From positions 192,001 through 256,000 of the forward strand of contig OY968769.1 in NCBI GenBank assembly GCA_963695345.1: a stretch of 64,000 nt of DNA. The letters are read 5' to 3'. Each line of letters opens with the position of its first letter. Positions within the stretch are counted from its first letter, which is position 1. Shown one piece after another: positions 5,651-54,780 of the stretch. Source of the stretch: an uncultured Methanomassiliicoccales archaeon. Its GTDB lineage: Archaea > Thermoplasmatota > Thermoplasmata > Methanomassiliicoccales > UBA472. The notes beneath the pieces were generated by a model. It was not told where the DNA came from, ran no database searches, and worked only from the letters and a program-made list of their open reading frames with translations. The position numbers were made by a program, and so were the translations under genes.

Positions 5651-5972
5651 TATGTTCCATTGCTAGCCGGAACGGGGTATTTGACCTTAACCCCCGGCTC
5701 ACCGAATGGATATGATGCAAGGGACGCGGTCGAAGGGCCCCAGGAGATAGCCATTCGAAGTTCGCTCATTGGGGGCCTAAGAATTCATTCCTATTTACAG
5801 GGCAGAGCGAGGTAGGCAGGTTCGGGGAAAGGGGTGTGCTGAAACTCGACAATCCGCCTCTCCAACAGCATACCTGTAAAGCATGATATTCGTTCATTGC
5901 ATCATTTTATGATAAACTGGGACAATGGGGTTGCTCAAAGGACTAAATCATTCTTTTAAATGGGGGTCGAAA

Positions 5973-8514
5973 ATGTTGGAGAATGGAAAGATCGTCGTCG
6001 CAGGTGATGTGACCATAGATTGGATACAGTGGGTAACGAAACAAGGCGAATATCCAGATGGCACAATATCGTTTAACTGGACCTTGTTTCCGGGCACACG
6101 AATGAAGGCTGAGCCGGGGGGAGCCATTCTTATAGCCCGAATGGTGAGAACGGCGACGAACGTCGAGGTCGCGACCCATGAATTGTCAGGTATCGAAAAC
6201 ATTCCTCCGGAAAAGGTCCTCCATTCCATTGTCCTTCTCGATTCTTATCCTATTACTGTCGAAGGAAAGGAGAAGGTCTATCGTGTTAAGCAGCAAGGTG
6301 GCTTCAGCGGGCCTCTGAACGGAGGATTGAGGCCGCTACCAATAGTCAATGACGATGCAGGCACCCGTCTGGTCATCCTGGACGATGCAGGAAATGGTTT
6401 TCGCGACGATCGGACTGAATGGCCACAGGCGATCCTGAAAAATGGAAAATGAACCGATGATCATCCTCAAGATGATTCGACCTCTGGCCTCAGGAGCTTT
6501 ATGGGACCATCTGGTGGCCGAACATGCGGAGAATCTGATAGTCGTCATAAATGCCAACGACCTCAGGGAGATGGGAGTCAATATCAGTGGACGACTCTCC
6601 TGGGAGCAGACCGCTGAGGACTTCTCATGGCAGATTGTCAACAATCCCCGAATAAGGTCCCTCGCTGCCTGTAAGAACCTCATAGTGCGATTCGGGCTGG
6701 ATGGGGCAATTCAATACTCGAACAATGATGGTAAGATCAAGGCTGCTCTTTTTTTCGATCCAAAATCATGCGAAGATGAGTTCAAAGAACATCTAAAAGG
6801 AGAGATGCAGGGTGAGATGGCGGCCTTCGTGGCCGCGCTCGCCTCGAGAATTAATGGTGAAGGTTTAGATGGTATCGAAGGCGGGATATGCGATGGCATC
6901 CTAAGGTCCAGACAGCTGCTGAGATCGGGGTTCGGGCCCGCCAATAGGGAACCTGCTTACCCCATATCGGCAATCTTCGGATCGAGCATCGATGCGAAGA
7001 CCATATGCAAGGTTCACATACCAACTTTCATTAACAAAGGGTCGAACGATGGAGACAACTGGAGGATACTCGAGGAGTGCACCAGGGGACGATTGGAGTC
7101 CATCGCCTACCAAGCGGTTCTAAAACCGACCGAGGAGTCTATGGACGCGGCTCCCAACGCCAGGTTCGGGGCGCTTTTCACCTTCGATAGGATCGAGATC
7201 GAGAGCTATCGCAGCATCAGGAACCTGATGACCGAGTATCTGGAACGGAAGGATGCCAAGGCTCCTCTCTCCATGGCGGTGTTCGGACCGCCGGGTTCGG
7301 GAAGTCATTCGGGGTGACACAACTGGCAATGGGCATCGATCCCGAAAGGGTTGTCAAAATGGAGTTCAATGTCGCCCAGTTCACCTCCGTCGATGACCTT
7401 ACCGACGCGTTCCACAAGCTAAGGGACCTGGTACTTGAGGGTAAGGTCCCCTTGGTATTCTTCGACGAGTTCGATGCCTCGTTCAATGGGGAACTGGGAT
7501 GGCTCAAGTATTTCCTGGCCCCGATGCAGGACGGCCTGTTCAAGGACGGGGAGACGATGCACCCTGTTGGCAAATCGATCTTTGTCTTCGCTGGAGGGAC
7601 GAGCAACACCTTCCAGCAGTTCTCCAGGGAGCACCGTCGATGGATAGACGGTTGACGATGAAAGCATGCTGAAGAAGTTCAGGGAAGCAAAAGGAACGGA
7701 CTTTGTCAGCAGACTAAGAGGCTACGTCAACGTCATGGGACCGAACCGTGCTGGGGATGACGACGCGTTTTTCATCATCAGGAGGGCGCTGCTCTTCCGT
7801 TCTCTGCTGGAGAGAAAAGCACCGCAAATTTTCGATGACCGCGGAAACGCGCGGATCGACCCGGGAGTTCTGCGCGGCTTCCTGAAAGTCCCGACGTACA
7901 AGCACGGGGCGAGATCGATGGAGGCGATCATCGATATGAGCATACTTGCGGGGAAGATACGTTACGATCAAGCGTGCCTGCCGCCGGCCAAACAGCTCGA
8001 TCTCCATGTCGACTCGGCGATGTTCTCAAAGCTCGTCCTGCGTGATGTTCTCTTCGGCGACGCAATGGAACGTCTGGCGAGAGCGATATACGAACAATAT
8101 CACATCGATCAGAAGGATAAGCAGTACCCCGACGAAGCGGCCATGCAGCCGTGGGGAAGCTTGGGGGAGGACCTAAGGCGATCCAATCGAGAGCAGGCGC
8201 AACAGATCCCTGAAAAGCTCCTACGTATTGGCTACGATTTCATGCCATTTTCAGAGAGACCAACAACATCCCTCGTCCTATCAGACGAACAACTTGAGGT
8301 CCTCGCAGAAATGGAGCATCAGAGATGGGTCGCTGAACGATTGGAGGAAGGATGGACCTATGGAAATCCACGAGACCCGGAAAGGAGGGTCAGCCCTTAC
8401 CTGGTTCCCTGGCAGGAGCTAAACGAGGAAGTGAAGGGCTGGGACAGGAACGCGGTGAGAAAAATTCCCGATCTTCTAATGATGGCGGGTTTCGAGGCAT
8501 ATAGATTACAATGA
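5973..8514 (+). CDS. Multidomain protein: PfkB/ribokinase-like N-terminus + P-loop ATPase + C-terminal RyR domain (four ORFs joined across three frameshifts)
   Basis: IVVAGDVTIDW..PGGA N-terminus; Walker A GPPGSGKS(FGV) restored by adding one G near 7305; Walker B LVFFDEFD; FVFAGGT; HGARSMEAII; RyR motifs LARAIYEQY, PW..L.ED.R.SN, LAEMEHQRW..GWTYG..SPYLVPW..L. Confidence 0.8.
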
Positions 8515-8841
8515 ATTTGAGGACTTGTGGCTGACAAAGCATTCCAAGAATTTCGACATAGTTTGAATGCGATCCACCATGATTTACATGGCGCCAATCG
8601 ATAGCCCATTGCTCAAGATACGAACTACTATCAATTCCATTTAAAGAAGGTTAGTCCATCTTCATTATTAATATAATATATTTAAAGGAATTAAAGTTAC
8701 GTTCGGCAACAACCTTTTGGAAGGGCGGGACGAATGCTCAATTGAAATGAGCTCCCTAGCCTCCTATTTATTCCATTGTTAGTCATTATCTAGTTACACA
8801 ATTATGGTTTGCAGAGATCGGGGGCAGGGGAGGTCCAATTC

Positions 8842-9546
8842 GTGTTTGGTAAACCGAATATTGTGAAGATGGAGCAGAACAAAGATATCGAGGGGCTCAT
8901 CAAAGCGTTGATCTATGAAAAGGATGACAAGATCCGATCTGACGCTGCCGTGGCCCTCAGCCACATAGGAGACCTTCGTGCCGTTGAACCTTTATTGAGA
9001 GCAACAAACGATTCTGACCATCGCGTTCGTTCAGTGGCAGCGGTTGCCATAAACGATATCCGGAAAAATCATAGTAAAGAAGATGGAGAAAAAACGGTCA
9101 GACCAGAAAAAGGTGCAATTTCTTCTAACAATTCTGCGATTGAAAGTAAAGTCGAAAAAAAAACTGAGGGAGGCCATCCAAAAGATGTTTGGGGCGGTTC
9201 CGAACCGATTGATGGAAGAGTCGATGACACCAAGAAGCGTTCCATCACTGTCTTCGTCTCCTCCACTTTCAGAGACATGCAGGCCGAGCGGGACGATCTC
9301 CTAGAAGAGGACTTCTCCGAACTTAGGAAAATCTGCGAACAGCGTGACGTGACATGGGGAGAGGTCGACCTTCGCTGGGGCATAACCGATGATGAGAAAG
9401 CGGAAGGAAAGGTCCTTCCCATCTGCCTGGCAGAGATCGATCGCTGCAGACCTTACTTCATCGGTATGCTCGGGGAGAGATCCGGATACGGTTCATGTGG
9501 TTCATTTGCGCTATTTTGTCAGCTAGATTTTATAAATTCTCGGTAA
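8842..9546 (+). CDS. HEAT-repeat + truncated DUF4062 domain protein
   Basis: GTG start after GGAGGT; MFGKPNI..DIEGLIKAL..DAAVAL.HIGDLRAVEPL (HEAT); VFVSSTFRDMQAERD..VDLRWGI..ICLAEIDRCRPYFIGMLGER (DUF4062). Similarity ends abruptly at about 9480. Confidence 0.8.
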   Translation: MFGKPNIVKMEQNKDIEGLIKALIYEKDDKIRSDAAVALSHIGDLRAVEPLLRATNDSDHRVRSVAAVAINDIRKNHSKEDGEKTVRPEKGAISSNNSAIESKVEKKTEGGHPKDVWGGSEPIDGRVDDTKKRSITVFVSSTFRDMQAERDDLLEEDFSELRKICEQRDVTWGEVDLRWGITDDEKAEGKVLPICLAEIDRCRPYFIGMLGERSGYGSCGSFALFCQLDFINSR

Positions 9547-9559
9547 GAACTTGCGAATT

Positions 9560-11066
9560 ATGGAGGCTTCTACTGAAGCAGGCATGCCTATACAGCCAAG
9601 CTAACGTCCTCTATTTCCAAGGCGATCCGGTAGGGGCCATGGCGCTCTACAAGGAACAGGAGCGGATATGCCGGGAAATGGACTACAAGGACAGCCTACG
9701 AGCAAGCCTTGGGAGCCAAGCGAATATTCTTTGTGATCGAGGTGAGCTGGACGGAGCTATGGCTCTGCATAAGGAAGAGGAACGATTGTGCCGGGAACTG
9801 GGCTACAAAGATGGCCTACGAGCAAGCCTTGGGAGCCAAGCTGGCGTTCTATACATTCGAAACAATCTTGACGGAGCTATGGCTCTGCATAAGGAAGAGG
9901 AACGATTGTGCCGGGAACTGGGCAATAAGGATGGCCTGCAGAGATGCGTGGGCAACCAGGCAAATGTTCTTCGTGTTCGGGGAGAGCTGGATGGAGCAAT
10001 GAGGCTTCTCAAGGCACAGGAATGCATATGCCGGGAATTGGGTAACAGAGAGGGCTTGCAGAAATGCCAGGGCAACCAGGCGAAGGTCCTTCGCGCTCGG
10101 GGGGACCTGGTTGGCGCTATGGCGCTCTACAAGGAACAGGAGCGGATATGCCGGGAAATGAGCAAAAAGGAAGGCCTGCAGACGTGCCTTTGGAACCAAG
10201 CTCTCATCCTTCGCGCTCGGGGGGACCTGGTTGGCGCTATGGCGCTCTACAAGGAACAGGAGCGGATATGCCGGGAAATGAGCTACAAAGATAGTCTGCA
10301 GGCATGTCTGGGCAACCAGGCGACCCTCCTTTGTGATCAACGCGAGCTTGTCGGAGCCATGGCACTATACAAAGAACAGGAGCGGATGTGCCAGGAAATG
10401 AACAACCGGGACGGCCTGCAGATATGTCTGGGCAACCAGGCAAAGGTACTTCGCGCTCGAGGGGATCGGGACGGGGCCATGAGGCTGCTCAAGGAACAGG
10501 AGCGGATATGCCAGGAAATGAACAACCGGGACGGTCTGCAAAAGTGCCTCAGCGAACAGGCGATCGTCCTTTGCAGTCGGGGGGACCTGAATGGAGCCAT
10601 AGCGTTCCACATAGAACAGGAGCGGATGGGCCGCGACATGGGCAATAAGGAAAACATATCGAGAAACCTAGGCAACCAAGCTGGTGCCCTCTTTACCCGG
10701 GGAGATCTGGACGGATCCATGAGGTTGCTCAAGGAACAAGAGCGAATGTTCCTAGAAGTGAACAACCGGGACGGCCTGCAGATATGTCTGGGCAACCAGG
10801 CAAAGGTACTTCGCGCTCGAGGGGATCGTGACGGGGCCATGAGGCTGCTCAAGGAACAGGAGCGGATGTGCCGGGAATTGGGTGATAAAGAGAGCCTTAC
10901 CAATGCCCTCATCAAGCAATCCCTTCTTCTAGCTGAATTGAAACGATCGAAGGAGGCCATATTGATCGCCGAGGAGGCATATAGAACCGCATATGAACTT
11001 CGCAATTTCGCTCTAGCCAAACATATTGAATCGATGCTAATTCGAATTCGTAATGAAACACCATGA
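9560..11066 (+). CDS. TPR-like repeat protein, 11 x 40-aa repeats plus a capping helix (true start uncertain; ORF track start is 9495)
   Basis: Consensus Q.CLGNQA.VL..RGDLDGAM.L.KEQERICRE...KDGL; TATA-like TTTATAAA at 9529-9536 and an ATG at 9560 that is one base out of frame. Confidence 0.8.
9579..10898 (+). repeat. Tandem array of 11 x 120-bp coding repeats
   Basis: Exact 120-bp periodicity (aaggaacaggagcggat.tgcc recurs); long near-identical stretches between units 2/3, 5/6 and 8/11. Confidence 0.92.
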
Positions 11067-11324
11067 AAGATGTCGAGTGGATTCATCGACTCAATTGATG
11101 GTCCAGCAATGCGGCATCGGCCATCTATCTGCGATTCAACTTGGGCAAATATTCGCTCATGATTGTGAGAGTGTGAATATTGCCTCAGGTATCGACATTG
11201 ATCCCGCTTTTCATCTCATACTCAGAGTAATGTTAGGCCGTTTGTTAGGCGCGTTATGGATATTTCAGGCCATCACTATTTGATATGATATAAGAGCAGA
11301 TATCATTGCCAGACATACCCTTTC

Positions 11325-14003
11325 TTAGTCAATCCTCTCCTCTACCAGTTCCCCCGTCTCGGAATTGATCCAGAGAATCGGTCGATTTAGACTGCGGGCG
11401 TATCGTACTGTCTCTCCGGTACCGCCTCGACCTGCCGCCTCGTCACCATTCCATATGGCTATCAGGACGTCGCAATAGTCTACGACGTATCTCCCGGCTC
11501 GTTCGTACGCCTCCTCTCTGGATTCTGTATGGGAAATGACCTCGACCGAGGCCGCTTGCCCAATATATCCTTCAAACTCCGCCTTTGAATCCGAGGATCT
11601 GAAATCCAGCAAGTAGTCCTCTTCTGGCATAGGTAGAATTGCCTCAATGATCGTTCTATGATCGCTATCCGAAGCATCGATTTCAAGCGCCTCTTTCACG
11701 ACGAGACGATCGGCCCCTTCCGCCAGCGGGGTAAGGATCACTCGATTGACCTTGCCGTTCCTAATGGCAAAGGACCAAATGCTATCCGTTCGAGCTATGG
11801 CCTGCCTTGTCCTCTTGCGTATATCATCTATCATTTCAGTTCGCAGATTCCTATGTCCAGTAACCCCTATGCGTATGGTTTCCAACGGGAACGGATGCTC
11901 CAAATATTTCTCATCCCCATATGCGCGCTTTAGAAGTGAATGGTCGGATTCCAGGATCCCTTTTTCCACCTCAATGCGGTAAATCGTAAGGTCGCCCCTT
12001 GCCAGGATTGAAGGCCATTCTGAGATCTCTTTGTCGACATTGTTATGAAATCTCAATATCGCATCCCTCTCCTTCGAGTCGAATTCGAACCTCTTGTTTT
12101 CAATTGGTCCCGTTCCTGATATTCCGCATCCGGCTGCTTTTACGCACGATTCTATCAGCCAGGCCTTATTCTGATATCTTGTCTTCTCTTGGGCATCCAA
12201 TGTGAACCAGAATGGGGCCTTTCGATTCGGAGGCTGCTTGTTATGATCGTCGAAGAAGATGGTTTGGGCGATAATGTCGTTAATGTCCATCTTGCATATT
12301 TTCTGGTAGACCCCAGCGAGGATCATGGGTATGTTACGGACTGAGCTTAGATCTTTGAATCTATCCGCGTCGTCCAATCTATCCCATTCAACCATGCTCC
12401 TATGCTGCTTCTTCTTCTTTCTCTTGTAAGCCCACCATCGTTCGTGTTCCATCCTGGATAGCCTGTCCAGCTCAAAGGGACTGAACTCAAATGGTTCCTC
12501 GAGCCAATCAGTTAAGGTCTCGACCTGACAGTTGATCGCCCTCATCTTTATGGAAATGCCATCGGCCTGAGCCCGGTTGTCATCTTTGAACTCCTCGCTT
12601 AATGGTCCCCACGGCAGCAACGAATCCTTCTTTGGTTCGCCCCTATGTTCGTTTAGGTACTCTTCATGGATCACTTGGGCGATGAGCTCGTTAGTGCCGT
12701 GCTCGATAAGCCCTCTGGTGCACACACTGTCCCATAGACCGAAGAAATGGACGTTCCCGACCATCGTCGTTTCCTTATCTTCGCTAAGGAGTTTAGCCAG
12801 ACCGTCGATCGTGTTCAACCGAACGACGATCGGGACGTTGAGAATCAGCTTCCTGAGCCCAATTGCATGCGATAGACCGACCTTGTCATCAGCGAGGCAG
12901 ATGAAGGCGCAAGAAAGGGGTTGTCCAACCTTAAGTTCAGATGATAGGTCCTTTCCAATGCCGTCATCTGAATTGAGATGTGAATCGATTCCTTCAATGA
13001 GGCAGACATCTTCAAGGAAGGATATGTCGGAATAGAGATTTCATTCTCTTTTTGGCGGCCTTATCCACGACCGTAATGGACAGTCGGACCCCGGATTTCT
13101 TGAATGTTCTTATCCATTTTCTGGCCGCCCCGATCAAAATTTTCTCGCCCATATCTCCCAGGCCAAGGATCAATATGTGACCATTAGGTAGCTGATCATC
13201 TTGAATATCTGGATATGGAAAATGCTCGTTAAGCACCATCCTGGCGCCCTGTTCCCAGAAATTGAAGAACTCCAATCTGATGTTCTTGTGATTGGTGTTC
13301 AGTTCCCGGGTCTTCATCAGTGTTCGGAGTTGCTCATCCTGGACGTGAACATAACAGGTTAGAGGGTCTGAACTGCGCCCATCGACCAGTTTCAACGCAT
13401 GGAATCCGATATCTGCGTTCCCATCATCAGAACCGATGGAGGGAACAATGAACCTGGCTCTTTTTATTCCAGCCTTTTCCAGAACGTCCTCATCCGTGGC
13501 ATCGCCATAGAGTATTAGGGAGTTCGAGTCCTTTTCATCCTCAAGGAATCCATTGTTCTTGTTCTTCTCTATGATCACCACCTGATATTCACTCTCAAGG
13601 GCCTTGACGAAACGGGAACCTACTTTGCCCGCACCGCAGATAATGACGTGGTCGCCGCAGGACATCAGCAATAAACGGCGCAATGGTTCGGAAAATGCTT
13701 TCGAAACTATCAAAGACGCAGTCCATAGGGAAAAGAACAGCGCGGTCCAACGAGCGATGTCGAGAAGCATGGAATAGGCATTGCCAGACCAATCGAGCAG
13801 GCCAGATCGGAGTAAGAACAGTTGGAATGTATAATAGATAGTGTCTGGCCAGGATACGTTCATACCTTTGTGGACAAAATATTCCTGGAAACCGAAATAG
13901 CCAAAGATGACCGTGATCAACCATGCAAAGGCAAAGACATACAGACCGAACCGCCGAATAAAACGACCGAGCGGCTAATTCCTCTTCTTATTCCATTGAT
14001 CAT
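11325..14003 (-). CDS. 2TM channel-like region + TrkA-N (RCK-like) x2 + RyR + C-terminal SLOG (YspA/DprA-like) fusion (frameshifts near 13975 and 13035)
   Basis: TM helix, WPDTIYYTFQLF pore-like segment, TM helix; HVIICGAGKVG..GDATDEDVLEKAGI; ILILGLGDMG; RyR IAQVIHEEY..PW..L...DNRAQA..MEHERW..MVEWDRL; SLOG IGVTGHR..PLAEGADRL..AYERAG..CDVLIAIWNG..GRGGTGETV. Confidence 0.82.
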
Positions 14004-14170
14004 TTTGCGCTCGATCGATATATTACGAGGGGCGGTCACATCTTCAGCATCATTCTCTATTAGTTTATATTTTCTCAATATTTTTTATTTAGCCTGAGCT
14101 TGACCAGTTGGACCTCTGAAATTTCACTAGTTTTTGAATCTGACAGGAGATTGCTAGAGGCAGGAACTCA

Positions 14171-14415
14171 AATGAAATCGCCCAAAGACGGGCGATTGCT
14201 AGGTCGCACATAGATATTCGGCCAAAATGGCCTTGTTAACCGGGCGATGGGAGGAGGCCTTGCAGATGTTCATGGACTCCTTTTTCGAACGGTTCATGAC
14301 CTATGTCGAATTGGATGAGGAAAAGCTTAAGCCAAATGAAAGAGAACAACGAGATATTCTCCGTATGATGATTCCTGATTGGCAAAGACAATTGGAGAGA
14401 GTCGGCCAAAAATAA
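14171..14415 (+). pseudogene. Probable C-terminal remnant of a helical-repeat protein
   Basis: AIARSHIDI / KMALLTGRWEEALQMF reads like a TPR helix across a frameshift; no convincing start. Confidence 0.3.
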
Positions 14416-14482
14416 TTGGAAAACGTTCAAAGCGCTATCGACCAGTCAAAAATCTAACCCGACCTGAGCCGGACGAAGTTCC

Positions 14483-14737
14483 CTATTGGACCAGCTCGAT
14501 TACGGCTACTGCACTTTGTCCGGTGGTGTCCGCCTCTATTTCCTTCCTGGTCACATCCTTTTCATAGAGCCGTATCTTTCCATCCGGGAGGTTAATTATC
14601 TGGAGAGTGCTGGCTTGTTTGACCACCTGCTCCGAATGTTCCAAGCTTCTGTAGATGCCTTCGATCTTTCTGATCGTACTGTCATCACTGCCAGTGTAAT
14701 GTTCATTCCTACGAATTCTGTATGCCGTTTCTGCCAT
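14483..14737 (-). CDS. Hypothetical protein, 84 aa
   Basis: ORF with normal globular composition; AT-rich TATA-like tract at about 14768-14781 upstream. Confidence 0.45.
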   Translation of the reverse strand: MAETAYRIRRNEHYTGSDDSTIRKIEGIYRSLEHSEQVVKQASTLQIINLPDGKIRLYEKDVTRKEIEADTTGQSAVAVIELVQ

Positions 14738-14973
14738 TTCAATCGCTAAGATTACTCCATTCGATGTCTATATATATTTAAGGATGGAAAAAATCCAGCT
14801 AAAAGGGGCATGCGATGAGGGTTAAGCCCCCATATATAAGGCAGGGAGCTCCCTAGCTCCATCCCTCGATCTCGATGAAAATAAGATCCGCTTGATGAGA
14901 AAGTCGGACAAGTGGATATCACTTTTATGGACGGGCTCGTGTTTACAAATGGCGATGTCAAGTGGCGATAGCA

Positions 14974-15105
14974 ATGAATTGGGGAACGCTGGGGCTCGGA
15001 TCGGTCGTGGCATTCGTCATAGGTTGGTTCCTATTTGGCCTGCTTGGCGCGGTGATATTGGCGATCATTGTTCTAGTTCAAATGGGAATACTGAAATTCA
15101 GATAA
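14974..15105 (+). CDS. Small membrane protein 'MNWG' copy 1, 43 aa
   Basis: Hand translation MNWGTLGLGSVVAFVIGWFLFGLLGAVILAIIVLVQMGILKFR*; paralogous to 15335-15493. Confidence 0.7.
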   Translation: MNWGTLGLGSVVAFVIGWFLFGLLGAVILAIIVLVQMGILKFR

Positions 15106-15204
15106 TAGGTGAAATAATGGCCCAGCTGAGACCTGCCGTTTTCAGTTGGAATCTCTTTCCCAGTCGTTTGGGTGATTCCTTACCATTCATACGATGGAAT
15201 GAAT

Positions 15205-15639
15205 ATATCACTCAGGTGGTCTAACCTTGTATGAAATCTAACAGATAATCCATTGAAAAGAAACTGGTGAAGGTCGACACTTTAATTAGGCATGGGCTGC
15301 GCTTCATTCGTCGGGTGATGGAATGGCTATGAGCATGAATTGGGGAGCAATAGGAATTATCGGAGTCGTACTATTTCTGATCGGCTGGTATTTTTTTAGT
15401 TTACTGCCCGCCGTATTAATTGCACTAGCTGTAGTCGTCTTGATGAGCATTCTGAGAATAGGCTGGAAAAGACCGAATCCTAAAGAGAAGTGAGAATATT
15501 ATTTGAAAAGGGATCAAACATATCTGTTGGACAAGTTCACTGAAGAGGGGATCGTTCCTCACGATCATAACGCTGCAGAACGTCATGGGCATGGACTCGG
15601 ATGAAATCGGAGATAGCATCAAGCATATCACTCAGGTGG
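15205..15639 (+). repeat. 15-bp direct repeat ATATCACTCAGGTGG at 15205-15219 and 15625-15639
   Basis: Exact match read by eye; one copy lies downstream of each MNWG gene. Confidence 0.8.
15335..15493 (+). CDS. Small membrane protein 'MNWG' copy 2, 52 aa
   Basis: Hand translation MNWGAIGIIGVVLFLIGWYFFSLLPAVLIALAVVVLMSILRIGWKRPNPKEK*; GGTGA upstream; alternative in-frame ATGs at 15323 and 15329. Confidence 0.7.
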   Translation: MNWGAIGIIGVVLFLIGWYFFSLLPAVLIALAVVVLMSILRIGWKRPNPKEK

Positions 15640-15904
15640 CTGGTTCGCGTTCAAACCGACCGATCTGAGGCGGACGTTCGGGTCACACACCGTGGTTGCA
15701 GCATAGACATCGTGACAAATCGCGGGGGTATGAGGCACAGGTCCCCGGACTTGACCTCCCGGTGCCATTTCGGAGGACCGAGGACATGTTCTCGACGGCT
15801 ATGGACAATCTTGTACCAAACACGCCGAGCCGTTCTAAACACATGTTCATATTATCCTAACCCAGGGTGCGCCGAATAGCGACGAATGATGCTGGTAGCC
15901 TCCA

Positions 15905-16315
15905 TCAGGCCAGCTTCTTCCCCACGTTCGGACCCGGGGTCTGATCGTAGATCGATCCGGGCTCCATGTACCATACCCCGATCACCGTGATACCGCGTGA
16001 CTTGACCTTCTCGTTCATCATGTCGAGGAGCGGGCCGGACGTCTTGTACTCCTTGATCATCGCGTGCACTTGGAAGGCGTTGCCGCCGGTGACGATAAGG
16101 ACCACCGGCCTCTCCCCGTTCCTCTGCATACCCTCCATGTTGAGGTGGGTCTTTTTCATGAACACCACTCCAAACACGATGTTGTTCGGGTCCGGGGCCA
16201 TCATGCTTCCCAGCGGAATCGCGTTTACCTCACCATCAGGCGTTTTCGTCGCAAGCACCTTCACGCTCGTGGGATCGTTGAGCGCGTTCATGACTTCTTC
16301 AGGCAGAGCTACCAT
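15905..16315 (-). CDS. Pyridoxamine 5'-phosphate oxidase-like FMN-binding protein
   Basis: KVLATKTPDGEVNAIP..FMKKTHLN split-barrel motif; IYDQTPGPNVGKKL C-terminus. Confidence 0.8.
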   Translation of the reverse strand: MVALPEEVMNALNDPTSVKVLATKTPDGEVNAIPLGSMMAPDPNNIVFGVVFMKKTHLNMEGMQRNGERPVVLIVTGGNAFQVHAMIKEYKTSGPLLDMMNEKVKSRGITVIGVWYMEPGSIYDQTPGPNVGKKLA

Positions 16316-16425: not shown

Positions 16426-19069
16426 ATGGAAAAAATGCGGAAAGAGGAAGTCTCCAACACCGGGCTCCCCGGCCTGGACAATATCCTGAACGGAGTCATA
16501 CTGGGAGATAACGTTGTCTTTCAGGTGGACACCATTGATGACTATTCCCGTTTCGTGAAGCCATTTTGTATCGAGGCGGGGAGGCGAAACAAGGATCTGA
16601 TCTACTTCCGTTTTGCCAACCACAAGGAAGTGATCCCCGAGGGATACAGCGACCACGTTTTTGTGCTGCACCCCGAGCAAGGATTCGAGATTTTCATCTC
16701 TGATATTTTCAATGTCATTGAAAGATTCGGGAAAGGGGCATTCTATGTCTTCGATTGCCTGTCAGAACTATCCGTCGATTGGTACAGCGACCGCATGCTG
16801 GGCAACTTCTTCATGCTGACCTGCCCCTATCTCTACGATTACAAGACGGTCACCTATTTCGCACTCGTCCGCAACCGCCATTCCTCGTTTGCCATCGATG
16901 CCATCCATAATACCGCACAGGTCGTCATGGACGTATTCAATCACAAGAACGAGATATATGTCCACCCCCTGAAAGTGGATGGCAGGCGGTCAAGAACCAT
17001 GTACATGCTGCATCGCTGGGAAGGGGAGGAATTCAAACCCGTCCTGACCAGCACGATGACGGCGGAGATCCTATCGGGGGTTCCTCAACCATGGTTGGAT
17101 TTCTCCATGCACCAGCGGGACATATGGACAAGAAGTTTCTCGCTGGCACAGGAGATGGTCAATACCACAGAGTCTGACGGATCGGAGGAGTTGAAGAGCA
17201 GTCGCCTCTTTGACCGATTGGTACGCATGGCCATAACGAGGGATGCTCGACCGTTGAGGCTGATCGAACAGTACCTCGATTTCTCGGACGTCGTTGACAT
17301 CGGAAAGCGCATGATCGGGACAGGGCTGATCGGCGGAAAATCCGTCGGGATGCTGCTGGCTCGCGCCATCCTGAAGAAAAATAACGTGGAGTGGTCGAAC
17401 AAGCTCGAGCCTCATGATTCCTTCTTCATCGGTTCGGACGTGTTCTACACATATCTGATCCAAAACCATTGCTGGTGGATCAGGCGAAAGCTCAACGATC
17501 CCGAGTCCGGATTTGTTCTGGACGCGAAGGCCAAAGAGCGACTGTTGACCGGGATATTTCCCAACGACATCGAAGACCAGTTCATGAAGATGCTCGAATA
17601 TTTCGGGCAGTCCCCCATCATCGTCCGTTCCTCCAGCCTTCTGGAGGACGCCTACGGGAATGCCTTCTCCGGGAAATATGAGAGCATCTTCTGCGCCAAT
17701 CAGGGGACGCCCCAGGTCAGGCTTGAGAACTTCTTGAACGCGATCCGCAAGGTCTATACGAGCACTCTGAGCGAAGAGGCCCTGGCATATCGAGAGCATT
17801 GGGGCCTGCTCGACCGGGATGAGCAGATGGCGATCCTTGTGCAGCGCGTATCCGGTTCCGTATATGATGATCAGTTCTTCCCCCAGATCGCCGGGGTGGG
17901 AGTATCCTACAATCCATACGTATGGAACAAGGAGATAGACCCCGAGGCGGGAATGATACGCCTTGTCTTTGGTCTCGGGACAAGGGCGGTTGACCGGATA
18001 GAAGACGATTACACCCGCATCGTGGCCTTGAACGCTCCATCAAGAAGGCCGGAATCCAGTTCCGAGGACATAAGGACGTTCTCCCAGAAAAGAGGAGACA
18101 TCATAGATCTGGCTGGAAATCGCCTCACGACAAGGTCTTTCGAGGAGGTGGTGGGAAAACTTCCCGATTATCCCATTGACATTTTCGCCTCCCGTGATCT
18201 TGCCTTGGAAAGGCGTATTCAGGATGCCGGAGGAAAGGAGGTCTTTTCGTGGATGCTTACTTTCGATGACCTGCTGTCCAAAGGGCCGTTCGTGAAAGAC
18301 ATGAGGGACATGATGAGCATCCTTGAAGATGCCTATGATCATCCGGTCGATATCGAGTTCACAGCAAACTTTTCGGACGTCTCCGATTACAAAATAAACC
18401 TCCTCCAGTGCAGGCCATTCCAGTCCAAGGGGAATATCTTGGCCGTGGAGAACCCGCGCTCCATCCCGAAAGACAGGATCGTCCTGGAATCCAAAGGACC
18501 GGTCATCGGAAGCAATAAGTCGGTCACCATCGACAGGATCATCTACGTTGTTCCGGAGGTCTATGGAAACATGAAAATGAGCGACAGATACGCGGTTGCC
18601 AGGCTTGTCGGGAAATTGACCCACTTGAAGGACAAGGGAGAAAAGCCGACCATTCTGCTTGTCGGGGCCTGGACGATGGGCAACGGCCGATCCCAGTCTG
18701 GGAGTCCCTGTCTCATTCTCTGAGATCAACACTGTCTCCGTACTCTGCGAAGTGGTCGCTATGCATGAAGGGCTGGTCCCTGAGGCATCCTTGGGGACGC
18801 ACTTCTTCAACGATCTGGTCGAGGTGGACATGCTCTATTGCGCAGTTTACCCCAAGAAGGATGGAGATACTCTGAACCAAGAATTCTTTGGCAAATCCGA
18901 GAATCGACTGACCTCCCTGTTGCCTGAAGCGAGTCCATACAGCTCTGCGGTCAAGGTCATCGATGGGAGCGGAGATAAGACCGGCCTTATGATCTGCGTG
19001 AATTCAGATGTGTCAAGACAGAGGCTGACCTGTTACCTCGACTCCAAGGAGGACAAGACCGATCAATAA
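16426..19069 (+). CDS. PEP/pyruvate-binding (PPDK_N) domain protein with a degenerate KaiC/RAD55-like N-terminal domain (frameshift near 18665)
   Basis: TGLPGLDNILNG N-terminus; IGGKSVGM, IIVRSSSLLED..FSGKYES, MAILVQRV, GLGTRAV, VDIEF, LLQCRP; C-terminal GPGRW..SLGTHFF. Confidence 0.85.
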
Positions 19070-27509: not shown

Positions 27510-29333
27510 TTCCTGACCTCCAGGCCGAGCATATTGAACACTTTGTCCATGTCCAAGGAATCCTGCAAGGCCGAAGCAATCCGCTCGATGCTTTCTTCGA
27601 CGGACGCGTCATACTCCTTGACGGCCGGCATGCCGTTCATCCCTGACCGGTCGTGACATGCCTTTGACAGAAAGAACCTGCGGAATGCCGGCAGGTCGAA
27701 CGATCCGTGAAGGTATGAACCCATGACCATGCCGTCGACCGACACCGCCCCGTCCGTGTGCTTGCCGGCGAGGTCCTCGATGTCGAACAGAGGCAACGAA
27801 CCGACCCGCTCGGTCATCCCCATATGGATCTCATAGCCGCGCACCGGACCGAGGGCCTCCTGCCCGATGATCTGTCCGGTCACCTGGACGGTCCTCTTGT
27901 CATAGGAGTCGAAATTGGTCACCACGTCAAGCAGGCCCAGTCCTTCGGTCGTCCCGGCCATCTTGCCCTCCAGACCCTGCTCGTCCCTGAGCTCGGCCCC
28001 CAGCATCTGGTAGCCGCCGCACACCCCGAGGATGGGGACCTTGCCCCGCACGGAACGGATCGCCTCATCGAAACCCTTCTCCCTCAGCCAGGCAAGGTCG
28101 TCGATGGTGTTCTTGGTCCCTGGGATGATAAGCGCCCCGCATTCATGGACCTCTGAAGCGTTCGTCGAGGAAACGCACTGAGACCCCGGTCTCCAGCGAC
28201 AGTGCATCGAAATCGGTGAAATTTGAGATTCGTGGCAGACGTACCACCCCGACGATGAGGGTTCCATCCTTTCTCCGTTCTCCCAGGAACATCGAGTCCT
28301 CGTCGGGAAGGTCCAGATCGATATGCGGTACGACCCCGAGGACCGGCACCCCGGTCAGCCTTTCGATCTCCTCGAATCCCTCCTGGAGCGATTCCGCCGA
28401 ACCGTGCATGTTGGTCACGATTATTCCGCCGAACATCTTCCGGTGCGCCTCGGGCAGCAGCATCAGTGTCCCGTACATGTAGGCGAACGCCCCACCCCAT
28501 TCGATGTTGACGACAAGGATGCAGCTGGCATCGGCTATCTCCGCCGTGCGCATGTTGACGATGTCGTGCTCGGACATGTTGATCTCGGCCGGGCTGCCCG
28601 CCCCCTCGATCACGATGAAGTCGGATATCCTCGATAGGAGCTCGATATTGCGGCGGACGATCTCCACACCCTCGGTGTCGGTGAACTCCCCGTAGTACTG
28701 CTTCACGTCCATGTCCCGGTAGGGGCGGCCTTCGACGATTACTTGGGATATCGCGTCTCCCTTGGGCTTCAGCAGGATCGGGTTCATGTGGCAGTTGGGC
28801 CGGACCCGGGCGCCCCGGGCCTGTAGCTCCTGGGCCCTGGCGATCTCCTCGCCGTCGTCGGTGACCACGGAATTGAGGGACATGTTCTGGGCCTTGAACG
28901 GGACCACCGAATAGCCCATGTTGGAGAAGATGCGGCAGAACGCGGTGCACATGAGCGATTTGCCGGCGCCGGACGTTGCACCCATGACCATGAGGCGTTT
29001 CGCCTTCTTGAAATGGCGACCCTCTAACTTTGTCTTGATCTCCTTGAGGTCCTGCTGCGATACTTCCTCGAATTTCCTTCCACCCATCTCTCGCAAGAAA
29101 TCGACAACGACCTCGTGACGGTGCATCCAATAGCATTCCTGACAGCTCCAGACCGGACCCTTCTTGCCTTCGACCATTTCTCCCAGGTCGGGGTCCATGC
29201 AAGGATAGAAAGGACAGAAGCAGAAGGAGCAGTTCTGCCCTTTGAAATGGCAGTGATACCATTCGCATGAGAGGTTGGTGCCGATGTCGCCGGCGGCAAG
29301 TTCCTCCGCGATCTTTTCCACGAAGTTTCTCAT
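27506..29333 (-). CDS. cobQ: Cobyric acid synthase with N-terminal Cys-rich small domain (frameshift near 28155)
   Basis: CEWYHCH..NCSFCFCPFYPC..WSCQEC; GATSGAGKS, PFKAQNMS, EGAGSPAEIN, PRISNFTDFD, PGTKNT, GVCGGYQMLG, GYEIHMG, GSYLHG. Confidence 0.9.
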
Positions 29334-29746: not shown

Positions 29747-31296
29747 ATGAACATTGATCCCAGCACCACCAAGTACCTGGTCAGGGCGAGGCTCAACGCT
29801 GATGGCATCGTCGAGAAGCCAGACGTCGTGGGTGCAATTTTCGGACAGACCGAAGGTCTGCTCGGTGACGAACTTGATCTCAGAGACCTGCAGAAGAGCG
29901 GCCGGATCGGGAGGATCGAGGTCGACGTGCACTCGAAGCAGGGCAAGTCCGAGGGCGAGATCCTTATCCCGTCAAGCTTGGACCAGGTCGAGACCGTCAT
30001 CCTGGCCTCGGCACTGGAGACCATCGACCGGGTCGGACCGTGCAAGGCCAAGATCACCGTCGAGTCCATCGAGGATGTCCGCGTCGTCAAGCGCGCCAAG
30101 ATCATCGAGCGTGCCCGCGAACTGCTCACCGAGCTCATCAAGCAGTCCAAGACCAGCGGCATCGACCTGACCGAGAGCGTCAGGCAGTCGGTGCAGGTCG
30201 AGGAGATCATCTACTACGGCAAGGAACGCCTGCCCGCCGGACCGAACGTCCCGGACTCCGACGCCATCATCGTGGTGGAAGGGCGCTCGGACGTGCTCAA
30301 CCTGCTGAAGTCCGGCATCAAGAACGCCATCGCGGTCGAGGGCACCAACATCCCCAAGACCATCATGGACCTGTCCAAGGAGCGGGTCATCACCGCCTTC
30401 GTGGACGGGGACCGGGGCGGAGAGCTCATCCTGCAGAGAGCTGTTCCAGGTGGCCGAGGTCGACTTCGTCGCCCGTGCGCCGCGTGCCCACGAGGTCGAG
30501 GAGCTGACCCAGAAGCAGATCATGAAGTGCCTGCGGAACAAGATCCCCGGCGAGCAGTTCATGGAGATGTTCGGCCTGGAGGCGGACGGCACCGAGAAGA
30601 AGAACGGCCGGTCCGACAAGGCGGAGAAGCTGGAACGCTTCCAGAAGGAGGACAAGGCGGAGCGCGCCGCCGAGGATAAGCGGACGCCGAGGAGAAGCCC
30701 GCCGAGAAGCGCAGAGGCGCCGGCACCGAGGCAGGAGCGCGAGGAACGCCGCGAGGAGAGGCCCCGGCAGGACGCCAGGAGAGCCGCGAGGAGAGGCCCA
30801 GGCAGGAACGCCAGGAACAGCGCCGCGAGGCGCCGAGCACCGAGGCAGGAGCGCGAGGAACGCCGCGCCGAGAGGCGCGAGGAGCAGCGCGGCCGTGGCG
30901 GAGACCGCTACGAGAGGCGCGAGGAGAGAGCCCCGCCGATGCCGGTGGAAGCAGCACCTGAGATGGCCGCAGAGAGCTCGGACAAGGCCAAGAAGCTGTC
31001 CGCAGCCCAGGAGAAGTACCGGGCATGATCAACGAGCTGTCGTCCACCTCCAAGGCCAGGATCATGGACGCCCACGGGCGGCGATCCGCAAGGAAGTACC
31101 GGTGAAGGAGCTGGTCAACACCCTGAAGGGAGAGACCGAGCCCATCTCCGCCGTCGTCTTCGACGGCATCATCACCCAGAGGATACTGGACATCGCCGCG
31201 GAACAGAAGATCGGGACCATCGTCGGCACCAAGATGGGCAACATCACCAAGCAGCCCAGCAGCGTCGACGTCTGGACCAAGGACGATCTGAACTGA
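29747..31296 (+). CDS. dnaG: Archaeal DnaG (TOPRIM; exosome-associated), several frameshifts
   Basis: [58 protein letters not shown]-terminal [10 protein letters not shown]. Confidence 0.95.
30723..30867 (+). repeat. 31-bp direct repeat (30723-30753, 30837-30867) within the R/E-rich linker of dnaG
   Basis: gcaccgaggcaggagcgcgaggaacgccgcg occurs twice, encoding [10 protein letters not shown]. Confidence 0.8.
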
Positions 31297-31298
31297 AC

Positions 31299-32838
31299 AT
31301 GACCGGAAAAGTGAACCTTCAGCGGGAACCCGACCTTCGGTCGATCGAGTCCACAGCGGACATCGAGATACCGACGGACCCGCTGATGCGGGTCATCGGC
31401 CAGGAAGAGGCCGTGACCCTGGCGCGCATCGCTGCCAAGCAGCGGCGCCATCTTTTACTGGTCGGACCGCCTGGATGCGGGAAATCCATGATCGCCCAGG
31501 CCCTTTCTTTACATTTATCCGCTCCCAAAGAGGAGATCCGCATCGTGCATAACCCGGAGAACCCGGAACGGCCCACGGTCGAGGTCAAACGGGAGGACGA
31601 GGTCCGCAAGGAACTGGAGTCCCTGGGTTCGCCGAGGGCGAGCTCATCGATCCGAAGAACGCGCCGATCAACGTCTCCGAACGTCTCGGCTACCGGTGCC
31701 GGAACTGCGGCACCTATTCCTCCCCGAAGGAGACGCACCTGCCCCAAGTGCGCCAAGACCAAGGGCGGGGACCAGCCCAACCAGGCCAACCCGTTCGGCG
31801 ACCTGATGACCGGACTTTTCGAACAGATCAACGCCGCCCAGGGGCAGACACGCCCCGGCGGGCAAGGAGAGGGTCACCACCACCCGGAAACGCTTCGGCA
31901 AGGAGGAGGTGGTGGTCTTCGAGCGCTGCGGCGAGATGATCCGGGTGCTCGACCAGAGCGCGCTGGAGAAGCGCCGGGAGCTGGAGAAGGTCTCGCCCAG
32001 GAAGGTCCTGGTACCACTGGACCGCAACCCATTCGTGCTCGCCACCGGCTCGTCCGAGACGGAACTGCTGGGCGACGTGCGCCACGATCCGTACGGCGGA
32101 CATCCGCAGCTGGGAACGCAGCCCTACGAGCGGGTGGTCCCGGGAGCCATACATGAGGCGCATGAGGGCGTCCTGTTCCTGGACGAGCTGCCGCATCTCG
32201 GCCATATGCAGCGGTTCATCCTCACCGCCATGCAGGAGAAGCGCTTCCCCATCAGCGGCCGCAACCCGCAGAGCGCCGGTGCGAGCGTCAAGGTGGACGA
32301 CGTTCCCTGCGACTTCATCTTCGTCGGGGCATGCAACATCCAGGACCTGGAGCAGGTGCTTTCCCCTCTCCGTTCCAGGATCAACCGGCAACGGTTACGA
32401 GGTCCTGGTCAACACCACCATGGAGGACAATGACCAGAACCGAGCCAGCCTGGCCCAGTTCATCGCCCAGGAGATAACCGTCGATGGACGTATCCCGCCG
32501 GCGACACGCGCCGCCGTCGAGGGCATCATCAAGGAGGCCAGGCAGCGCGGGCAAACGCATTGACAACCAGAACAACGCCCTGACGCTGCGCCTGAGGGAG
32601 CTGGGCGGACTGCTGCGGGCCGCCGGGAGACATAGCCGTGGTCAACGGAGATGCGATGATCGATATCAAGCACATCGACCAGGCGATAAAGCGCTCCCGT
32701 TCCGCCGAGGACCAGATCAAGGACCGGTACGGCTCCTACACCAAGGGACTGGGCACCGACATCTCGTCGGCGCAGAAGGAAAAGTCCCCCTATTATTTCC
32801 AGAACGAGACCGCGGACAAGGATACGATGTTCCATTGA
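31299..32838 (+). CDS. LonB-like AAA+ ATPase lacking the protease domain (several frameshifts)
   Basis: VIGQEEAV, LLVGPPGCGKS, NPENPERP, LLGDVRHDPY, GAIHEAHEGVLFLDE, VPCDFIFVGACN, LRSRI, LRLRELGGL. Confidence 0.85.
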
Positions 32839-54236: not shown

Positions 54237-54780
54237 ATGAACAACATCAAGATCGGTATAACTGGCCTTCCAAGTGCGGGCAAGACGCACACCCTGGTAA
54301 AGGTTATCGAGATGCTCGAGGCGGAGGACCTCAAGGTCGGAGGAATGATCACCGAACCTATCATGGACGACAAGAAGCGAAGTGGCTTCTACGTCATCGA
54401 CTGGCGTACCAAGGAGAAAGGGGTGCTGGCCTCCACGGACATAACGAGCAAGTTCATGGTGGGCAAGTACGGCATCGACCTTAGTGTGCTGGAGGATGTC
54501 GGCGTCCGGGCGCTGGAGACGGCGTGCGCCGAATCCGACGTGATCGTGATCGATGAGGTGGGCAAGATCGAGGTCGAGAGCGAGAAGTTCGTCAATGCTG
54601 TGAAGGCGGCGTTGGACGTGGAGAAGCCCATACTGCTTGACGTTGCACAAGAAATCGCGCAATCCCCTGCTGCAGGACATCCGCCGCAGGGATGACGTTA
54701 GGATACTCGAGGTGACGCCGATCAACCGGAACCTGCTGCCCTATAAGATCATGAAGCTCATGAAGGGAGAGCTTCTTTGA
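54237..54780 (+). CDS. THEP1-type nucleoside triphosphatase (frameshift near 54640)
   Basis: ITGLPSAGKT, GGMITE, VGKY, IVIDEVGKIE. Confidence 0.9.

Follow-up and report, generated by a model that had tools for sequence, protein, structure and literature searches.

For years, the prokaryotic RyR domain was a curiosity of structural genomics. In May 2026, a phage RyR domain was presented as an anti-Thoeris tool; as stated in the accessible part of that account (PMC13232231), which describes viral members only, phage RyR-domain proteins bind 2′/3′ cyclic ADP-ribose (2′/3′cADPR), and one of them cleaves it, via an H-x-x-W pair, a His and an Asp. Thoeris itself places a TIR-type domain that cleaves nicotinamide adenine dinucleotide (NAD) beside effectors with a nucleotide-binding domain; in ThsA the receptor for 3′cADPR is a SLOG domain, as given in the available text of a Thoeris survey (10.64898/2025.12.03.692087). 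The same text reports a verified system of TIR and ion channel, type X, and contains no mention of RyR; overlap with its 29 predicted types is possible. Here we analyzed a 64,000-nucleotide (nt) stretch of an uncultured Methanomassiliicoccales archaeon (contig OY968769.1, positions 192,001 to 256,000; G000:C1:192001-256000, hereafter the window), whose genome is one contig of 2.56 Mb and 85% complete. At ∼5709-15857 the window holds an island with three genes, which encode an AAA ATPase-RyR protein (gene 1), a HEAT-DUF4062-TPR protein (gene 2) and a pore-like protein with TrkA_N, RyR and SLOG domains (gene 3). We consider it probable that the island was acquired horizontally and holds a degraded member of a widespread, unnamed and modular family of conflict systems, which are probably antiviral.

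DUF4062, or NIR, is described as a TIR-like NADase in phage defence, and the available portions of the three reports name no RyR, RCK or SLOG partners (10.64898/2026.05.01.722283; 10.64898/2026.06.25.731849; 10.64898/2026.09.04.749371); the last of these, in the part available, gives NIR domains in ∼8.7% of genomes. An earlier note on the window, made from the letters alone, had proposed a module in which a TPR sensor, a nucleotide-signal generator or reader and an RyR-coupled ATPase control a membrane channel, and had known of no characterised system with this gene set. The block and its domains were confirmed as first described, and the first interpretation is partly supported. The novelty stands for the gene set as a whole, but not for its DUF4062 part, now that such proteins are described as defence effectors themselves.

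Two multidomain proteins of the island carry a tandem RyR module

The hallmark of the family, as predicted by alignment and modelling, is a C-terminal tandem RyR module of the animal repeat-12 fold that is common to several proteins of one neighbourhood. Gene 1 (5925..8514, + strand) encodes an N-terminal domain without family assignment, an AAA ATPase and a C-terminal, repeat-12-like tandem RyR module (8023-8511, + strand). Its reading frame is broken into four pieces; the breaks lie near 6434-6445, 7293-7314 and 7634-7675, and the second of them splits the Walker A motif. The body of gene 1 aligns over the full length with AAA ATPases of 702-739 amino acids (aa) from two order-mates; compared to these, gene 1 has ∼160 extra C-terminal residues, which are the tandem RyR module. 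Pfam assigns the module to PF02026 with 60 bits (cut-off 27.4; E 2.7e-16), and a sequence search of the PDB matched the C-terminus to a solved RyR repeat-12 chimera (E 3.7e-25), the PDB matches of the ATPase being confined to the RyR part. The AlphaFold2 (AF2) model of the module has a pLDDT of 89.3 and matches the whole human RyR3 Repeat12 domain in Foldseek with TMq 0.66-0.68 over ∼185 columns. For the N-terminal ∼430 aa, we found no Pfam family and no usable ESM Atlas match. The homologues without the RyR tail are located at 8488-10596 (− strand) of locus L008 and 8769-10988 (− strand) of L009, in the order-mates G029 and G020, respectively.

Gene 3 (11325..14003, end approximate, − strand) is convergent to the other two genes. 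It encodes a two-transmembrane (2TM) pore-like segment, a TrkA_N/RCK domain, a tandem RyR module (12279-12761, − strand) and a C-terminal SLOG domain (11328-11906, − strand). One clear frame change lies near 13016-13049; a second, probable one lies near 13980-14000, close to the gene start. TrkA_N is matched by Pfam with E 1.2e-18 and 68 bits. The RyR module scores below the Pfam cut-off (E 0.015, 15.9 bits); it aligns with 11 other RyR modules, keeping the invariant H, W and D (alignment A1), and P0002, the nearest relative of gene 3, carries PF02026. Thus the RyR domain that the earlier note had placed on two different multidomain proteins is present on both, by Pfam in gene 1 and by alignment in gene 3.

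The SLOG domain of gene 3 is also below the Pfam cut-off (cpYpsA, E 0.069). It is 40-50% identical to the SLOG of ∼540-aa SLOG-SLATT proteins, and the sequences of alignment A3 share its motifs GVTGHR, PLAEGADR and GGTGE, including the G-rich first loop and GGTxE. The AF2 model of the domain (pLDDT 90.8) has fold matches to YpsA (2nx2, E 6e-8), DprA, ShosA, the ThsA SLOG (7uxs, 6lhx), LOG and the N-termini of TRPM proteins; searching the PDB by sequence with gene 3 and with the SLOG profile returned nothing meaningful. Like a Thoeris effector, gene 3 therefore has a signal-binding type of domain, the SLOG at its C-terminus, whose model matches the ThsA receptor. Different from SLOG-SLATT proteins, gene 3 lacks the SLATT domain, to which nothing in the island showed similarity; gene 3 stops at the SLOG-SLATT linker, with its SLOG placed behind TrkA-RyR as if the 2TM-RCK pore had replaced the SLATT pore.

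In its order of 2TM, pore helix and TrkA_N, gene 3 resembles RCK-gated 2TM K+ channels (MthK/Kch). Different from them, it carries QLFLLRSG in place of the TVGYG of K+ channels. The channel named in the earlier note is thus a predicted 2TM pore-like segment that lacks the K+ selectivity filter, while TrkA_N, RyR and SLOG of the same claim are retained. A first search with the middle part of gene 3 found no relatives longer than 870 aa, and in the exhaustive protein search the fused forms were 650-816 aa in size. A metagenome scan with the same middle part returned two ATPase-RyR contigs only and no context of the gene 3 type.

The module shares with phage RyDEP the Pfam family PF02026 and the repeat-12 fold and, as judged by residue spacing, the H-x-x-W pair and the Asp. 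Mapped in this way, RyDEP not being part of the alignment, residues H75, W78 and D117 of RyDEP would correspond to the invariant H99, W102 and D141 of A1. Different from RyDEP proteins, which are small viral counter-defence homodimers, the host RyR modules are C-terminal tandem pairs on large multidomain proteins.

RyR genes are linked to SLOG, TIR and DUF4062 genes across phyla

One genome per species was scanned for the double-RyR module using a 5-sequence alignment, as the 12-sequence alignment was too divergent. The scan gave 307 pattern matches, 280 of which were confirmed relatives, and 80 loci, which sum to 1.18 Mb, were kept. Their contents were determined by our own calling of open reading frames (ORFs) and by phmmer seeded from the window; in 8 loci, the RyR ORF was not picked up by this calling. 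The loci span Hydrogenedentota, Nitrospirota, Gemmatimonadota, Planctomycetota and other PVC groups, Chloroflexota, Acidobacteriota, Actinomycetota and Proteobacteria, and, among archaea, Thermoplasmata, Methanomicrobia and Bathyarchaeia. In the phylum of this archaeon, RyR is an uncommon domain, present in 12 of 401 genomes; the matches there comprise TrkA_N-RyR with an adjoining SLOG gene, an operon of RyR and SLOG-SLATT, and SLOG-RyR followed by a DUF4062 gene.

RyR is carried by the 2TM pore-RCK protein (fused here to SLOG), by the AAA ATPase and, elsewhere, by a RelA/SpoT-TPR-SLOG protein. These RyR proteins adjoin NLR-like or other TIR or DUF4062 proteins, SLOG-SLATT pore proteins and NUDIX hydrolases. 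TrkA-type genes were found in 40 of the 80 loci (38 ORFs join TrkA and RyR), RelA/SpoT-SLOG-RyR genes in 35 (33 ORFs join RelA/SpoT, SLOG of the LSDAT type and RyR), gene-1-type ATPases in 11 (10 uninterrupted ATPase-RyR ORFs, 847-982 aa), DUF4062 in 11 (12 ORFs join DUF4062 and NACHT) and gene-3-type SLOG in 10 (8 ORFs join SLOG and SLATT). In three representatives of the RelA/SpoT-SLOG-RyR type Pfam recognised RelA_SpoT, TPR, LSDAT_prok and RyR, and in a fourth all but LSDAT_prok. At least two RyR genes are present in 25 loci, every one of the 11 ATPase loci has a second RyR or SLOG gene, RelA/SpoT-SLOG-RyR is paired with TrkA-RyR in 14 loci, and SLOG-SLATT genes adjoin TrkA-RyR or ATPase-RyR genes in 8.

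Two loci of Hydrogenedentota (L024 and L025) combine SLOG-SLATT, ATPase-RyR and a convergent TrkA-RyR gene, which is the set of the window with SLOG on a separate protein. Locus L092 has a RelA/SpoT homologue (RSH)-SLOG-RyR gene together with DUF4062-NACHT-TPR and ATPase-RyR genes, and in L086, L088, L094 and L098 the TrkA-RyR gene adjoins a SLOG-SLATT gene. The contig of L098 is labelled as a Bifidobacterium breve metagenome-assembled genome (MAG); its order of TIR-kinase, TrkA-RyR and SLOG-SLATT has coordinates near-identical to those of L086, L088 and L094, three contigs of Acidobacteriota MAGs, and L098 may be mis-binned. Fusions were surveyed among the best 150 of 8047 representatives of the exhaustive protein search. 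They join TrkA-RyR-SLOG in P0124, P0125 and P0186, SLOG-TrkA-RyR in P0123, P0147, P0165 and P0194, and ATPase-RyR-SLOG in P0246. The earlier note had asked whether these genes co-occur elsewhere; they are found together, and also fused, in phyla of both bacteria and archaea.

Pfam annotation of the 150 closest further ORFs, out of 306 candidates within 4 kb, identified NUDIX in 17 and TIR_2 in 14. By local jackhmmer search, 27 of the loci have a TIR gene and 35 have TIR or DUF4062; by local iterative search, NUDIX is present in 20 loci and an RtcR-like sigma-54 activator in 9. In 21 cases, a TIR or NIR gene lies within 500 nt of an RyR gene. NUDIX genes near RyR are small (median 149 aa). Directly upstream of many RelA/SpoT-TPR-SLOG-RyR genes, for example in L036, L038, L039, L043, L062, L063, L072 and L081-L083, there is a ∼145-aa NUDIX gene (PDC-S07).

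No named PADLOC system covers this gene set, in line with the earlier note, and its RyR proteins are without a PADLOC model. Against PADLOC-DB 2.0.0, fragments from the window hit nothing beyond generic HEAT-ARM and TPR models and, weakly, ShosA (E 0.0087), and intact ATPase-RyR, TrkA-RyR and SLOG-SLATT homologues matched no family at E ≤ 0.001; its candidate families PDC-S33 and PDC-S07 correspond to the RelA/SpoT part and the NUDIX gene, respectively. A literature search did not find a host-side RyR family with several outputs, the phage RyDEP preprint being the only relevant report; the 2015 SLOG/SLATT paper of Burroughs et al. may mention RyR-SLOG contexts, and RyR is not mentioned in a 2022 survey of NAD-ADP-ribose systems.

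Gene 2 is the broken remnant of an NLR-like NADase gene

Gene 2 (8809-11066, + strand) contains HEAT repeats, DUF4062 and a TPR array, and these domains of the earlier note were matched by Pfam (HEAT_2 9e-8, DUF4062 1e-9, TPR_MalT 3e-16), but the gene itself is broken. Its 5′ remnant (8809..9489, + strand) holds the HEAT repeats and the first ∼90 residues of DUF4062, the match covering positions 2-67 of the 82 profile positions. The 3′ remnant (9495..11066, + strand), in a different frame, holds a TPR-like array of ∼12 repeats of 40 aa with a 120-nt period (9501-10880). All 14 alignments of related loci to the DUF4062 region stop at window position 9489. In 11 of the 14, this is at about residue 90-145 of the homologue; in the other three, which have N-terminal extensions, it is deeper.

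The intact relatives beside RyR genes are DUF4062-NACHT-TPR proteins of 1100-1700 aa, as in the NLR-like NIR class described in the accessible text of 10.64898/2026.09.04.749371. With its N-terminal DUF4062, HEAT repeats and TPR array, gene 2 resembles the described NIR proteins (NLR-like NIR, Avs-NIR, Vulcan, Swarozyc, Evangelion). Different from them, it retains an incomplete NADase domain, the C-terminal half being gone, and has no NACHT. The NACHT NTPase is present in all 12 DUF4062 neighbours with a NACHT match, and a search of the island for a NACHT remnant found none. Judged by these relatives, the TPR array is the tail of an NLR-like NADase and not a free-standing sensor, and the local module is not intact, as it lacks half of its NADase domain as well as NACHT.

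The junction inside gene 2 (9484..9577, + strand), a putative rearrangement scar, has a counterpart of ∼80% identity on contig C38 of the congener G003, where this counterpart overlaps an open frame at the frame's 5′ end. Because of this match, we take the loss of half of the NADase domain and of NACHT as a genuine rearrangement, not an assembly slip. A TIR_2 scan of the whole genome, 85% complete, gave no match, and gene 2 is the only DUF4062 of the genome and the sole NAD-cleaving candidate found in it. Compared to Thoeris, the genome thus has no TIR synthase gene, its candidate generator being a broken NIR gene, and the island effectors carry an RyR module, with several RyR-bearing outputs instead of one effector. 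The DUF4062 remnant at 9229-9489 is 63-69% identical to proteins of PVC-group bacteria (L092 and L085; Pontiellaceae, Victivallales), which hints at a transfer between domains of life. No relative found for the other island genes comes near this identity.

The island is an accessory block at a variable site

The island lies between nreA on the left (Nre_N, E 9e-100), a gene that marks the genome as archaeal, and a small conserved gene on the right. In comparison with 30 relatives, DNA homology within the genus stops at window position 5706-5732; homology to congeners picks up again at 15849-15858, and in G005 already at 15504. The ∼10 kb low-GC block of the earlier note was confirmed with these borders; its guanine-cytosine (GC) content is 0.496 versus 0.560 for the genome. 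The GC content is uneven within the island (gene 1, 0.528; gene 2, 0.523; gene 3, 0.487; tail, 0.458). The island is an accessory block and not conserved core, the case that would have spoken against the earlier note: in three of the seven congeners (G007, G004 and G006) both flanks adjoin directly without an island, and in three others (G005, G003 and G002) the site is filled with 3-6 kb of other cargo, namely a Na/H exchanger with Usp, a histidine kinase with response regulator, and an MFS transporter with a beta-helix protein and a nitroreductase. In G001, which is 55% complete, neither flank was found. The three island genes have no DNA match in any of the seven congeners.

An imperfect direct repeat of ∼23-35 nt flanks the island, with its left copy at the border (5685..5718) and its right copy at 15856..15892; empty sites have one copy only. 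One small repeat excepted, the island sequence is single-copy in the genome. Scans of the island found no tRNA and no Rfam match, and no integrase or transposase was recognised in it.

Interruptions of the island genes and the state of the local copy

All three island genes are interrupted, genes 1 and 3 together by five frame changes. Frame changes hit housekeeping genes of this assembly as well: window genes with orthologues in the closed genome of G007 also change frame at ∼18640-18714, 28160-28190, 31020-31080, 32390-32550, 36242, 52137 and 54630-54670. Because of these shifts, and because the completeness is 85% despite a single closed contig, the breaks point to indel errors spread over the assembly at ∼1 per 4-6 kb, or to many pseudogenes. 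The break rate of the island is higher (∼1 per 1.5 kb), which could be due to lower coverage of an accessory region or to true decay. At least part of the island is decaying, of which the rearrangement of gene 2 is independent evidence. Since gene 2 is broken and is the only DUF4062, and no TIR was found in the genome, the system can hardly signal and is probably dead in this genome. The local island is a relic, mainly a record of genes that were gained horizontally at a variable site and then decayed; its interest lies in the family that it reveals.

The island tail and the right neighbour

The tail of the island (14004..15855) has no long ORF and consists of small host-type genes; it showed no similarity to the ORFs of the 80 related loci. 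It contains a hydrophobic ORF of ∼47-56 aa that begins M(A)..MNWG (14962-15105, + strand) and, in tandem, a paralogue of it (15323-15493, + strand). A third copy is at G000:C1:553724-553868, and related genomes contain matching DNA of 72-80% identity at numerous sites; by this distribution, the ORFs look like a conserved family of small membrane proteins of this archaeal order. Two further small ORFs, 14227-14415 (+ strand) and 14483-14737 (− strand), are shared with G003, with 76-85% DNA identity to L109 (G003:C38) 1307-1990. In G003, the sequence of the gene 2 break (9484-9577) lies ∼160 nt from the region matching these two ORFs, suggesting that the island has recombined with accessory DNA of the host. 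From 15504 onward the tail is common to G005.

The right neighbour (15905-16315, − strand) has several paralogues with 72-76% DNA identity, scattered in related genomes. Of the flanks named in the earlier note, nreA is borne out, but the PNPOx-like label of this neighbour is not, as no Pfam family matches it at E ≤ 0.01.

A Thoeris-like reading and its alternatives

With a probability of about 0.6, we favour a system of the Thoeris kind, with RyR and SLOG as domains that respond to an NAD-derived signal and gate a membrane pore. Infection would be detected by a sensor that has NACHT and repeats of the TPR or WD40 type and that turns on its own TIR or NIR domain, whereupon an NAD-derived molecule of the ADP-ribose type would build up. 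RyR and SLOG may bind this messenger and activate the modules attached to them, so that one messenger could reach several outputs. In the gene 3 type, the RCK ring would open the 2TM pore, ion gradients would collapse, and dormancy or abortive infection would follow; background signal could be cleared by NUDIX enzymes. We infer this mechanism, and with it what the ATPase does, what the signal is and how the channel is gated. The nucleotide-signalling reading of the earlier note fits the literature, in which DUF4062 is an NADase and, in the accessible part of PMC13232231, phage RyR proteins bind or cleave 2′/3′cADPR.

Several observations weigh against this reading. By the spacing-based mapping, the position of the phosphate-binding His of RyDEP (H100) is taken by Ser in gene 1 and in most aligned modules, and by His in gene 3. 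The K+ filter is missing in the window protein and in 29 of the 33 homologues examined, which carry a QLFxLESG-type segment instead of TVGYG; a T[IV]GYG filter is kept in four (L086, L088, L094 and L098). The RyR-less ATPases of G029 and G020 sit amid housekeeping genes (enolase, hydantoinase, histone deacetylase, formate-dehydrogenase-like), so this ATPase family also exists outside RyR systems. The cargo of the congeners at the island site is not defence-related, and since the local genes are broken, they allow no statement on function in this organism. The TIR count of 27 loci comes from the iterative local search, with 14 of the 150 neighbours verified by Pfam. Neither TIR nor DUF4062 was seen in 45 of the 80 loci, many of them on short contigs, which would also be expected from a different source of the signal. 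Ligand binding, channel activity and phage defence of family members are themselves predictions from sequence.

The main open alternative keeps the family and its linkage and changes the messenger, which would come from the RelA/SpoT domain as an alarmone-like product or would be an ordinary adenine nucleotide such as ATP or ADP. The genes would then serve a circuit of stress or ion homeostasis, or a defence without NAD-derived messengers, and the TIR and NIR proteins, as effectors of their own that deplete NAD, would only share the island with it. RCK domains normally sense nucleotides or ions. An alarmone-like signal is conceivable because RelA/SpoT, the commonest partner, is found in more loci (35) than TIR (27) or DUF4062 (11), and 14 of these loci have TrkA-RyR too. 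Adenine nucleotides are possible ligands because the solved structures of human RyR3 repeat-12, as seen from the titles of the fold matches, contain ATP, ADP or AMP-PCP. The published NIR proteins, according to the available text of 10.64898/2026.09.04.749371, deplete NAD and do not signal, and the 45 loci without TIR or NIR gene fit a different signal as well. However, the 21 TIR or NIR genes within 500 nt of RyR genes and the 20 NUDIX loci argue for an NAD-derived messenger, as does the binding of cADPR isomers documented for both SLOG and RyR (PDB 7uxs; accessible part of PMC13232231). The patchy, accessory distribution and the NLR-like partners suit conflict systems better than housekeeping, and the window island has no RelA/SpoT gene. 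We consider this alternative unlikely.

Still less probable is that the RyR modules work as enzymes or sinks in the manner of phage RyDEP, a glycosidase, and that they cleave or sequester cADPR-type signals as a built-in off-switch or for self-protection. The spacing-based equivalents of the RyDEP dyad, H75 and D117, are invariant in all 12 aligned host modules. However, in the part of PMC13232231 available, none of the eight tested homologues cleaved the signal despite high conservation, while six of the eight bound it. One C-terminal domain on several outputs is the usual pattern of a sensor, by analogy with CARF, SAVED and SLOG, and a clearing activity would already be offered by the separate NUDIX gene. 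That the three genes are unrelated cargo, brought together by chance in a variable region and left as a graveyard of pseudogenes, would suit the unrelated cargo at the same site in three congeners, the interruption of all three genes, the host-type genes of the tail and the rearranged gene 2 junction, but this least probable explanation is largely refuted by the same neighbourhoods and fusions recurring in Hydrogenedentota, Nitrospirota, Gemmatimonadota, PVC groups, Acidobacteriota and archaea, and local decay is compatible with a Thoeris-like system as well.

Implications of a host-side RyR family

Going beyond the Thoeris-like reading, we tentatively propose, as a possibility that we rate below even odds, that the tandem RyR module is a cellular receptor for ADP-ribose-type messengers derived from TIR or NIR domains. 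It would be the shared sensor of the RCK-gated pore, the AAA ATPase, the RelA/SpoT protein and the SLATT pores; phage RyDEP proteins would be captured copies of it, and the pore protein with RyR and SLOG would be a forerunner of the control of animal RyR and TRPM2 by cADPR and ADP-ribose. The repeat-12 fold of animal RyR and the N-terminal SLOG-like fold of TRPM2, which is gated by ADP-ribose, stand together on one prokaryotic pore-like protein. Different from both animal channels, this protein shows no homology to them in the pore or in overall architecture, and we put forward an evolutionary link of the gene 3 type to animal RyR and TRPM2 as a hypothesis.

If the Thoeris-like reading is right, the prokaryotic RyR domain would gain a host-side role as a signal receptor, and a large and phylogenetically broad family (280 loci at one genome per species) would join the known Thoeris-like systems. 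Its outputs, namely an RCK pore, an AAA ATPase and a RelA/SpoT enzyme, are unusual. For the old question of whether cADPR acts on RyR channels via repeat-12, there would be a simple microbial test bed. The island suggests a new branch of nucleotide-signal immunity, Thoeris-like in its logic, with gene 2 belonging to the newly described NIR class.

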